Of a stretch of DNA of 64,000 bases, positions 3,210 through 28,958 are shown in pieces. Location of the stretch: assembly GCF_055900595.2 (NCBI RefSeq), contig NZ_CM148325.1; one strand, written 5' to 3'. The notes under the pieces are model-generated. The model saw nothing but the letters and a program-made list of their open reading frames with translations, did no database searches and had not been told where the DNA came from. The position numbers and the translations under genes were made by a program. Numbering within the stretch: the first letter of the stretch is position 1; the number at the start of each line of letters is the position of its first letter.

Positions 3210-3302
3210 TACAGTCCTTTCTACAGCCTCCTGTTGGAGGCTGTTTTTTTATCCATTCGAACTCTTTATACTGGTCACTCCCTACCCAATCGTATTATCA
3301 AA

Positions 3303-3993: not shown

Positions 3994-4150
3994 GTAGGCC
4001 TGATAAGACGCGGCAAGCGTCGCATCAGGCATTGATGTCGGATGCGGCGTAAACGCCTTATCCGACCTACAAAATCACGCTAAATCAGGCTATTGCGCAG
4101 TCTGGCGTAGGCCTGATAAGACGCGGTAAGCGTCGCATCAGGCATCCACA
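3994..4150. repeat. REP/BIME cluster (repeated gtaggcctgataagacgcg...cgcatcaggc palindromic units) between convergent yjcO and gltP
   Basis: Two near-identical copies of the aggcctgataagacgcggcaagcgtcgcatcaggca unit plus gccggatgcggcg...ccttatccg units; typical enterobacterial REP sequence. Confidence 0.7.
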
Positions 4151-25344: not shown

Positions 25345-25881
25345 TCAGAACGGAATATCGTCATCAAAGTCCATCGGCGGCTCATTAGACGGTGCTGCCG
25401 GAGCAGACTGCTGCGGGCGAGACTGCGCGCCGCCGCTGAACTGATTGCCGCCCTGCGGCTGCTGAGGCTGACCCCAACCGCCCTGCGGCTGACCACCACC
25501 GATATTGCTACCTGCAGGAGCGCCACCACCCTGACGACCACCCAGCATCTGCATGGTGCCGCCAACGTTCACCACGACTTCTGTGGTGTAGCGATCCTGA
25601 CCGGATTGATCGGTCCATTTGCGGGTACGTAGCTGACCTTCGATATAAACCTGAGAACCTTTACGCAGATATTCGCTGGCCACTTCTGCCAGTTTGCCGA
25701 ACAGCACAACGCGGTGCCATTCAGTCTGCTCTTTCATCTCGCCGGTCGCTTTATCACGCCAGGATTCGGAAGTAGCCAGCGTAATGTTGGCAACTGCGCC
25801 ACCATTTGGCATGTAGCGTACTTCCGGGTCCTGACCCAGATTACCAACGAGAATAACCTTGTTTACGCCTCTGCTGGCCAT
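25345..25881 (-). CDS. ssb: Single-stranded DNA-binding protein (178 aa)
   Basis: ATG at 25881; OB-fold N-terminus, Gly/Gln/Pro-rich linker, C-terminal DDDIPF tail. Confidence 0.97.
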
Positions 25882-26044
25882 GTTCGTGTCTCCTGAAAAA
25901 AAATCGTTCTGAATAAGTGTAAACGCGCGATTGTACCATTACCAATAGCGCTTTTACTATGTTGTGACCTCGGTTCCGGGAAACAAACCTGGCCAGACAT
26001 TGTTACACAACACTCCGGGTAATGCATTCCAATACTGTATATTC

Positions 26045-26060
26045 ATTCAGGTCAATTTGT
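26045..26060. promoter_or_regulatory. LexA (SOS) box CTGTATATTCATTCAG in the ssb/uvrA divergent promoter region (coordinates approximate)
   Basis: Matches the CTGT-N8-ACAG LexA consensus; lies upstream of uvrA. Confidence 0.7.
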
Positions 26061-26135
26061 GTCATAATTAACCGTTTGTGATCGCCGGTAGCACCATGCC
26101 ACCGGGCAAAAAAGCGTTTAATCCGGGAAAGGTGA

Positions 26136-28958
26136 ATGGATAAGATCGAAGTTCGGGGCGCCCGCACCCATAATCTCAAAAACATCAACCTCGTTATCCC
26201 CCGCGACAAGCTCATTGTCGTGACCGGGCTTTCGGGTTCTGGCAAATCCTCGCTCGCTTTCGACACCTTATATGCCGAAGGGCAGCGCCGTTACGTTGAA
26301 TCCCTTTCCGCCTACGCGCGGCAGTTTCTGTCACTGATGGAAAAGCCGGACGTCGATCATATTGAGGGGCTTTCTCCTGCCATCTCGATTGAGCAGAAAT
26401 CGACGTCTCATAACCCGCGTTCTACGGTGGGGACAATCACCGAAATCCACGACTATTTGCGTTTGTTGTTCGCCCGCGTCGGTGAGCCGCGCTGCCCGGA
26501 CCACGATGTACCGCTGGCGGCGCAAACCGTCAGCCAGATGGTGGATAACGTGCTGTCGCAGCCGGAAGGTAAACGCCTGATGCTGCTCGCGCCAATCATT
26601 AAAGAGCGCAAAGGCGAACACACCAAAACGCTGGAAAATCTGGCAAGCCAGGGTTACATCCGTGCTCGTATTGATGGCGAAGTCTGCGATCTTTCCGATC
26701 CGCCGAAACTGGAACTGCAAAAGAAACATACCATTGAAGTGGTGGTTGATCGCTTCAAGGTGCGTGACGATCTCACCCAACGTCTGGCAGAGTCGTTTGA
26801 AACCGCGCTGGAGCTTTCCGGTGGTACCGCGGTAGTTGCCGATATGGACGATCCAAAAGCGGAAGAGCTGCTATTTTCCGCCAACTTCGCCTGCCCAATT
26901 TGCGGCTACAGTATGCGTGAACTGGAACCACGCCTGTTTTCGTTTAACAACCCGGCGGGTGCCTGCCCGACCTGTGACGGCCTTGGCGTACAGCAATATT
27001 TCGATCCTGACCGCGTGATCCAGAATCCGGAACTGTCGCTGGCAGGTGGTGCGATCCGAGGCTGGGATCGCCGCAACTTCTATTACTTCCAGATGCTGAA
27101 ATCGCTGGCAGATCACTATAAGTTCGACGTCGAAGCGCCGTGGGGCAGCCTGAGCGCGAATGTGCATAAAGTGGTGTTGTACGGTTCTGGCAAAGAAAAC
27201 ATTGAATTCAAATACATGAACGATCGTGGCGATACCTCCATTCGTCGTCATCCGTTCGAAGGCGTGCTGCACAATATGGAGCGCCGTTATAAAGAGACGG
27301 AATCCAGTGCGGTACGCGAAGAATTAGCCAAGTTTATCAGCAATCGCCCGTGCGCCAGCTGCGAAGGAACGCGTCTGCGTCGGGAAGCGCGCCATGTGTA
27401 TGTCGAGAATACGCCGCTGCCTGCTATCTCCGACATGAGCATCGGTCATGCGATGGAATTCTTCAACAATCTCAAACTCGCAGGTCAACGAGCGAAGATT
27501 GCGGAAAAAATTCTTAAGGAGATTGGCGATCGCCTGAAATTCCTCGTTAACGTCGGCCTGAATTACCTGACACTTTCCCGCTCGGCAGAAACGCTTTCTG
27601 GCGGTGAAGCCCAGCGTATCCGTCTGGCGAGCCAGATTGGTGCGGGCCTGGTTGGCGTTATGTACGTGCTCGATGAGCCGTCTATCGGCCTGCACCAGCG
27701 CGATAACGAGCGCCTGCTGGGTACGCTTATCCATCTGCGCGATCTCGGTAATACCGTGATTGTGGTGGAGCACGACGAAGACGCGATTCGCGCCGCTGAC
27801 CATGTGATCGACATTGGCCCGGGCGCAGGTGTACACGGCGGTGAAGTAGTCGCGGAAGGTCCCCTGGAAGCGATTATGGCCGTGCCAGAGTCGTTAACCG
27901 GACAATACATGAGCGGCAAACGCAAAATTGAAGTGCCGAAGAAACGCGTTCCGGCGAATCCGGAAAAAGTGCTGAAGCTGACAGGCGCACGTGGTAATAA
28001 CCTGAAAGACGTGACGCTGACGCTGCCAGTCGGTCTGTTTACCTGCATCACAGGGGTTTCAGGTTCCGGTAAATCGACGCTGATTAACGACACACTGTTC
28101 CCAATTGCCCAACGCCAGTTGAATGGTGCGACCATCGCCGAACCGGCACCTTATCGCGATATTCAGGGGCTGGAGCATTTCGATAAAGTGATCGATATCG
28201 ACCAAAGCCCAATTGGTCGTACTCCGCGTTCTAACCCGGCGACCTATACCGGCGTGTTTACGCCTGTGCGCGAACTGTTTGCGGGCGTACCGGAATCCCG
28301 TGCGCGCGGTTATACGCCAGGACGTTTCAGCTTTAACGTCCGTGGCGGACGCTGCGAAGCCTGTCAGGGCGACGGCGTGATCAAAGTGGAGATGCACTTC
28401 CTGCCGGACATTTACGTACCGTGCGACCAGTGCAAAGGCAAACGCTATAACCGTGAAACGCTGGAGATTAAGTACAAAGGCAAAACCATCCACGAAGTGC
28501 TGGATATGACCATCGAAGAGGCGCGTGAGTTCTTTGATGCGGTGCCAGCTCTGGCGCGTAAGCTGCAAACGTTGATGGACGTTGGTCTGACGTACATTCG
28601 CCTGGGGCAGTCCGCAACCACACTTTCTGGTGGTGAAGCCCAGCGCGTGAAGCTGGCGCGTGAGCTGTCAAAACGCGGCACCGGGCAGACGCTGTATATT
28701 CTCGACGAGCCGACCACCGGTCTGCACTTTGCCGATATTCAGCAACTGCTCGACGTACTGCATAAACTACGCGATCAGGGCAATACCATCGTGGTGATTG
28801 AGCACAATCTCGACGTGATCAAAACCGCTGACTGGATTGTCGACCTGGGACCGGAAGGCGGCAGTGGTGGCGGCGAAATCCTCGTCTCCGGTACGCCAGA
28901 AACCGTCGCGGAGTGCGAAGCATCACACACGGCGCGCTTCCTTAAGCCGATGCTGTAA
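26136..28958 (+). CDS. uvrA: Excinuclease ABC subunit A (940 aa)
   Basis: ATG at 26136; tandem ABC ATPase domains with Walker A motifs ([18 protein letters not shown]) and zinc-finger Cys clusters. Confidence 0.98.

Follow-up and report, generated by a model that had tools for sequence, protein, structure and literature searches.

A single LexA operator in the divergent ssb/uvrA promoter region of Escherichia coli

The DNA analysed here, a stretch of 64,000 nucleotides (contig NZ_CM148325.1 of assembly GCF_055900595.2) referred to below as the window, is part of an E. coli chromosome with both ssb and uvrA annotated, and a 1.1-kb query around the site under discussion found matches in 5425 of 5426 complete E. 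coli genomes, several of them at 100% identity. According to the annotation of a 100% identical record, the gene order is nrf-acs-actP-yjcE-soxRS-pdeC-yjcB-ssb / uvrA-yjbR...dnaB...zur-dinF-lexA-plsB. The ATG of ssb is the complement of 25879-25881 and that of uvrA begins at 26136, and the 254-bp spacer that separates these start codons coincides exactly with 25882-26135, the interval given in the original prediction. There, a LexA box had been placed between two divergently transcribed DNA-repair genes, and this arrangement is borne out by the coordinates and by the Pfam assignments of both products (Table 1). The gene encoding the LexA repressor of the same genome lies inside the window as well.

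Table 1. Coordinates of the features of the ssb/uvrA region and of lexA in the window
Feature	Position	Strand	Basis and remarks
ssb CDS, 178 aa	25345-25881	-	ORF list, RefSeq annotation of 100% identical record, Pfam SSB
ssb transcription start site (TSS; G on minus strand), unstressed cells	25924	-	SMRT-Cappable-seq; 43-nt 5' UTR
Proximal ssb promoter, extended -10 TGGTACAAT, LexA-independent	25930-25938	-	Lenient scan, conservation
Candidate distal ssb promoter (P1)	26026-26055	-	Minus-strand reading and lenient scan; predicted hexamers
LexA operator (SOS box), 20-mer TACTGTATATTCATTCAGGT	26033-26052	.	Unique, matrix rank 3, conserved
uvrA extended -10 element TGTCATAAT	26060-26068	+	Lenient promoter scan; hexamer CATAAT at 26063-26068
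uvrA TSS (G)	26074	+	SMRT-Cappable-seq; 62-nt 5' UTR
uvrA CDS, 940 aa	26136-28958	+	ORF list, RefSeq annotation of 100% identical record, Pfam UvrA
lexA, 202 aa	41530-42138	-	ORF and lexA annotation in identical record; repressor acts on ssb/uvrA box in trans
lexA operator	42145-42164	-	18.3 bits
lexA operator	42166-42185	-	20.8 bits (19.2 with the site left out of training)

No RNA family was found by Rfam within the ssb/uvrA spacer. Elsewhere in the window, gathering-level matches were obtained for the SraL sRNA (21941-22080, overlapping the 3' end of soxR on the opposite strand), for a SECIS element (1474-1528), for STnc430 (61765-61913) and for four copies of naRNA4 (3997-4067, 14615-14686, 49857-49927 and 61979-62050), all of which are known features of E. 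coli. The SECIS element is presumably that of fdhF, judging by the gene order in E. coli.

Compared with K-12 MG1655, the sole difference in the spacer is one extra A in an A-run. This run (25896-25903), located in the ssb 5' UTR just 5' of the ssb ribosome-binding site, is length-polymorphic, with A8 here (T8 on the ssb strand) versus A7 in K-12 and many other strains. The adjoining 537-bp ssb coding sequence carries 12 substitutions relative to K-12, against none in the 254-bp spacer apart from this 1-nt change. Of 5426 E. coli records, 5410 have the spacer at 99% identity or more, whereas most have the 1.1-kb region at 95-99%. The noncoding control region is hence more uniform than the ssb gene next to it.

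LexA operators of gammaproteobacteria are imperfect 16-bp palindromes with a CTG-N10-CAG core and the consensus TACTG(TA)5CAGTA. The spacer contains one 16-bp core of the form CTGT-N8-TCAG, itself an imperfect palindrome, at 26035-26050; the corresponding 16-mer CTGTATATTCATTCAG occurs once in the window, on the plus strand. The motif that had been predicted near 26045-26060 is thus real, but its position was given 10 bases too high. The site carries the CTG-N10-CAG core and its left half equals the consensus, while the right half-site TCAG has a T before CAG, a position at which all 18 boxes used for training have A or C. These 18 LexA boxes (Table 4 of PMC3009722), among which the uvrA/ssb site is absent, were used to build a symmetrised log-odds matrix. 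With this matrix the 20-mer scores 17.3 bits and ranks third among the approximately 64,000 positions of the window, in agreement with the claimed fit to the LexA consensus. When up to three mismatches to the perfect consensus were allowed, no match was obtained in the window, because the box has more than three. Since leave-one-out scores of the training sites extend from 6.6 to 27.9 bits, with the ssb/uvrA box inside this range in its weaker half, the site can be regarded as a mid-to-weak but typical LexA box. Our own heterology index based on the 18 sites is 8.5-9.2, with a training maximum of 9.3, and differs from the published values of 6.98 (PMC9505508) and 6.2 (PMC11228462) due to the different sets of reference sites.

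The two higher-ranking positions in the window are the operators of lexA itself, which immediately precede the lexA start codon (ATG at 42138, minus strand), and these serve as positive controls for the matrix within the same DNA. They share with the ssb/uvrA box the CTG-N10-CAG motif, the repressor, the window and scores in the range of 18-21 bits. However, lexA has two adjacent boxes before its start codon and a single operon, lexA-dinF, whereas one box stands between two divergent genes in the case of ssb and uvrA. A third weak CTG-N10-CAG match (AACTGCACAATAAACCAGAG, 42207-42226) about 20 bp further upstream of the lexA operators scores 6.0 bits, approximately at chance level. The match ranked fourth in the window reaches only 11.35 bits, which corresponds to chance, as the mean best matrix score in random 64-kb sequences is 11.4 bits. 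This LexA-like sequence of chance level for 64 kb (TATTGTTTTTCACGACAGTA, 12258-12277) lies in the nrfA-acs intergenic region, and a further one (GGCTGTTTTTTTATCCATTC, 3239-3258; 11.27 bits) likewise scores no better than chance predicts. In the region that extends 300 bp beyond the spacer at both ends (25582-26435), the next best score is 4.0 bits, so that no second box is present and the description of the box as single holds.

A match to the consensus arising by chance in an AT-rich promoter region and having no function has to be weighed here, since CTG-N10-CAG is common (23 matches in the window versus 12.4 expected, with the ssb/uvrA box and both lexA operators among them), and of 200 random sequences of 64 kb, 4 contain a site scoring as high somewhere, which amounts to 3.9e-7 per position. 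However, when 400-bp regions upstream of uvrA were shuffled, 12.5 bits were reached in 0.4% and 17 bits in 0 of 2180 cases. Together with the position of the box relative to a mapped transcription start, its presence in all evaluable Enterobacterales loci with an invariant core between variable flanks, and the published LexA-dependent expression, each of which is described below, this explanation is effectively refuted already.

On the uvrA side, the promoter could be placed precisely relative to the box. SMRT-Cappable-seq assigns to uvrA (b4058) a TSS at K-12 position 4273933, with 96 and 161 reads, and to ssb (b4059) a TSS at 4274083, with 62 reads (PMC6131387 Supplementary Data 1), and the mapping of K-12 coordinates onto the window was confirmed by sequence. 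Each of the two genes is listed with one transcriptional context in M9 and in rich medium (PMC6131387), whereas the TSS supplements of Ettwiller 2016, Kim 2012 and Conway 2014 gave no usable entry for the ssb/uvrA region. A strict scan of the spacer for sigma-70 promoters and terminators yielded no matches, for the uvrA promoter because its -35 is poor. The promoters on both strands were obtained with a lenient scan that allows extended -10 elements. These elements predict starts at about 26075 for uvrA and about 25923 for ssb, one base off the mapped positions in each case, and the comparison with published promoter maps that had been proposed as a check is thus provided by starts at 26074 and 25924. 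The uvrA -10 hexamer lies 6-11 nt upstream of its mapped TSS, and the corresponding -35 position is occupied by TATTCA (26040-26045), with three of six matches and inside the LexA box. The box covers -41 to -22 of the uvrA promoter, its end lying 84 nt before the uvrA ATG and its start about 152 nt from that of ssb. Overlap of operator and promoter is therefore established on the uvrA side by a mapped TSS, and on the ssb side an overlap with the distal promoter would follow from predicted hexamers.

For ssb, the -10 hexamer of the proximal promoter is likewise located 6-11 nt upstream of the mapped TSS, and the LexA box lies at -109 to -128 from this start used in unstressed cells. This separation, with an extended -10 element of its own, supports the original statement that ssb has additional LexA-independent promoters. 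The discriminator between the -10 hexamer and the TSS (25925-25929, minus strand) reads CGCGC, and GC-rich discriminators are typical of promoters under growth-rate or stringent control. Such a sequence would fit the growth-phase dependence reported for ssb expression (PMC9505508).

Reading of the minus strand further revealed a candidate for a distal ssb promoter, P1, the exact hexamers of which we infer. Its -35, TTGACC (26055-26050), is a good hexamer that faces ssb and overlaps the LexA box, and with a predicted -10, TGGAAT (26031-26026), it would leave an 18-nt promoter spacer filled by the box; an alternative -10 candidate, TACAGT (26039-26034), lies within the box itself. No TSS for a distal ssb promoter is found in the SMRT-Cappable-seq data from M9 and rich medium, which fits repression of this promoter at its predicted position.

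The literature describes the element in much the same terms. A single SOS box with a heterology index of 6.98 overlaps the uvrA -35, and LexA controls only the most distal of three ssb promoters; the LexA binding sequence is documented in the same paper by citing Brandsma 1985 and Fernandez de Henestrosa 2000 (PMC9505508). Salmonella enterica also has one box common to divergent ssb and uvrA (heterology index 6.99), with LexA-independent basal expression of both genes (PMC8072944). The proposal that one operator could place both genes under SOS control is accordingly supported: the same model is given in PMC9505508 and PMC8072944, and the location of the box in the uvrA promoter agrees with it. 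Expression data are unequal for the two genes. In an RNA-seq study of 2024, uvrA showed 3.9-fold induction by AZT and 4.4-fold lexA dependence, as compared to 1.5-fold induction and 1.0-fold lexA dependence for ssb (PMC11228462). Induction of ssb by UV and gamma rays in a LexA-dependent manner has been reported and several older studies saw none (PMC9505508); ssb induction has also been seen in published RT-qPCR, and an ssb promoter-GFP reporter behaves as an 'early' UV-induced promoter (PMC5999292). Given RNA-seq data without lexA dependence, the ssb arm of the LexA model is weak or conditional.

These data give some weight to the view that the box is in practice an operator of uvrA only, with ssb placed next to it by gene order and experiencing no meaningful effect. 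In M9 and rich medium, the sole TSS seen for ssb is remote from the box, ssb responds little to AZT and in several older studies did not respond at all, the P1 candidate hexamers are kept solely within Enterobacteriaceae, and the box with the uvrA -10 module is found order-wide, with Vibrio having the box at uvrA and an ssb without a box 2 kb away. However, UV does induce the ssb promoter-GFP reporter, the good -35 hexamer facing ssb overlaps the box, and the conserved block around the box, including its ssb-side flank, is unchanged in the most divergent genome examined. We consider restriction to uvrA unlikely, although it is a live minority view, and it bears only on how much the box matters for ssb.

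The box 20-mer is identical to positions 4273955-4273974 of K-12, the uvrA/ssb SOS box of Brandsma et al. 1983, 1985 and Fernandez de Henestrosa et al. 2000 (as cited in PMC9505508), and it has the same flanking genes, orientation and distances. By sequence, the element in the window is therefore the K-12 uvrA/ssb SOS box itself in another E. coli strain. In the most divergent spacer labelled E. coli (strain 14EC007, 91.3% identity), 22 differences were counted and none of them falls in 26023-26081, a block comprising the box and adjoining promoter elements with the ssb-side flank. The variable part of this spacer (NZ_CP024131.1) matches the E. albertii type strain, and the comparison suggests that the record is E. 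albertii or carries an introgressed segment.

For a wider survey at the level of species, 120 loci were picked by a degenerate pattern for the start of UvrA (MDKIEVRGA) and not by the box, and the 400 bp upstream of uvrA were scored in each, with at least 12 bits as the threshold for tabulation. Among Enterobacterales the box is present in 84 of 84 evaluable loci; its score is never below 12.5 bits (median 17.6), and its distance from the uvrA ATG is typically 80-90 nt, with a median of 83 nt. It is found in all three Vibrionales loci (25.2 bits; 63-76 nt from the ATG), all six Aeromonadales loci (13.9-15.2 bits; 40-41 nt) and both Pasteurellales loci (18.6 bits; 59 nt). In none of the 21 loci in the group of Alteromonadales, Shewanella and Idiomarina was a box found (highest score 7.5 bits), and this group serves as a natural negative control. 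Since the genomes are related and the samples are not independent, such counts overstate the number of independent tests, and the informative part of the conservation is the pattern of invariant box positions versus variable flanks.

Alignment of 67 distinct Enterobacterales spacers revealed three invariant elements of the box, CTG (26035-37), ATAT (26039-42) and CAG (26048-50), and variation at its other central positions (26043-26047). The TGnCATAAT of uvrA and the TG/TA...T of the proximal ssb promoter are 90-100% conserved across the order, and the gap between the box and the uvrA -10 hexamer is 10-12 nt in nearly all Enterobacterales. The flank tgcattccaa and the P1 candidate hexamers are conserved within Enterobacteriaceae and not order-wide. 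The right half-site varies as well: S. enterica subsp. arizonae has a consensus-like AACAG (TACTGTATATTCAAACAGGT, 21.6 bits) where E. coli has ATTCAG (17.1 bits), and AACAG is also present in all fetched loci labelled Klebsiella, Lelliottia, Trabulsiella and Phytobacter and in most labelled Enterobacter.

The conserved block (26023-26081) extends beyond the box into promoter elements, and an ArcA site, mentioned in the legend, is drawn in the ssb/uvrA spacer in Figure 1 of PMC9505508. It could accordingly be argued that the block is mainly the target of another regulator such as ArcA, or simply core promoter, with its likeness to a LexA site being secondary. However, invariance of CTG, ATAT and CAG around variable positions 26043-26047 is the pattern of a LexA site and not that of a promoter hexamer, and expression is lexA-dependent. 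Further regulators may act alongside LexA without replacing it, and a primary role for any of them is very improbable.

Some loci depart from the usual arrangement. The box is 140-175 nt from the uvrA ATG, with extra sequence between, in Pectobacterium (L027, L083 and L085), in Serratia (L121), in the Rahnella-like L046, L067 and L106 and in L072, L078 and L024. No uvrA -10 is visible in the 34 nt after the box in the Pectobacterium and Serratia loci, and in the Rahnella-like ones the uvrA -10 is about 24 nt further from the box. The geometry of operator and promoter may differ in these taxa. Two contigs carry the box under unexpected labels. In a 9.5-kb contig labelled Flavobacterium paronense (NZ_JAUFQN010000013.1), the box and both flanks are identical to the E. 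coli window and the N-terminal 114 aa of Ssb are 100% identical; the box in a 2.9-kb Hyphomicrobiales-labelled MAG contig (JAATFR010000166.1) is of the Enterobacterales type and almost the same as the one in Acerihabitans. Contamination or mis-binning seems to be behind both cases.

The gene neighbourhood changes across orders. ssb is divergent upstream of uvrA in 83 of the 83 Enterobacterales loci that have enough upstream sequence to be tested (84 in total), and it directly abuts the uvrA spacer in this order and in L092, the sole Pasteurella locus whose upstream sequence is long enough. Outside Enterobacterales and Pasteurellales, a distance of 1.5-2 kb separates ssb from uvrA. In Aeromonadales and Alteromonadales (L068, L075, L114, L007, L058 and others), a tight operon of an MFS transporter gene and ssb diverges from uvrA, the transporter gene carrying a YajR YAM domain, and in Aeromonadales the LexA box sits in the short spacer between uvrA and the MFS gene. 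In Vibrio (L065 and L105), a gene for a GalU-like nucleotidyltransferase is found between uvrA and ssb, with the box adjoining uvrA. Since the box is kept by uvrA in Vibrio with ssb, 2 kb away, having none, the operator is tied primarily to uvrA.

This distribution leaves room for an evolutionary reading, in which the operator would ancestrally belong to uvrA and SOS control of ssb would have come about as a side effect of gene order. If the MFS gene was lost, ssb would come to lie directly against the uvrA spacer, the distal ssb promoter that LexA can repress would derive from the promoter of the former MFS-ssb operon, and the conserved non-consensus T could represent a selected weakening that keeps basal uvrA expression high. 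We regard this reading as tentative, a possibility that falls well short of even odds, and if true it would be a gloss on a known element with no new mechanism. A related idea, that the proximal ssb promoter was an ancestral promoter between the MFS gene and ssb, was not supported: no TGnTAnnnT is present in Aeromonadales and Alteromonadales, in which 15-25 nt separate the end of the MFS gene from the ssb ATG.

Taken together, we put the probability at roughly 0.93 that the sequence 26033-26052 serves the divergent uvrA/ssb region of E. coli as its single LexA operator, the LexA mechanism included; the site, its score, uniqueness, TSS-relative position and conservation were computed here, and the LexA dependence is taken from the published work. 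As long as cells are undamaged, a dimer of LexA, whose gene lies 16 kb away in the window, would bind CTGT-N8-TCAG. Because the uvrA promoter relies on an extended -10 and has a weak -35 inside the operator, bound LexA would hinder RNA polymerase, by what we infer to be steric occlusion, and would lower uvrA transcription a few-fold. For the most distal ssb promoter, on the opposite strand, the box would take up either its spacer or its -10, and LexA is thus expected to silence only that ssb promoter. Transcription of ssb would proceed mainly from the proximal extended -10 promoter, whose start is 109-128 nt from the operator and hence too far for occlusion, so that basal ssb expression would be LexA-independent. 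Upon DNA damage, RecA filaments would trigger self-cleavage of LexA and the operator would be vacated, raising uvrA about 4-fold and giving ssb a small extra share from its distal promoter. The strength of the operator is middling, and the T in the TCAG half-site fits substantial basal expression of uvrA.

The ssb/uvrA operator is real, widely conserved and already known. It is among the earliest characterised SOS operators and, being already in the literature, is ordinary as a finding; only the cross-order tabulation and the coordinate-level account of the uvrA/ssb asymmetry are mildly new. As a site of this kind it can be used as a calibration point, with a window that brings its own positive controls in the form of the lexA operators; the original prediction, made from the letters alone, identified a true regulatory site and read it correctly, its one error being the 10-base shift in position. 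Physiologically, the account addresses an old puzzle in the literature, namely that uvrA is clearly LexA-responsive and ssb with the same box barely so: the asymmetry would arise because the one promoter of uvrA is under the operator, whereas the main ssb promoter is more than 100 nt away.
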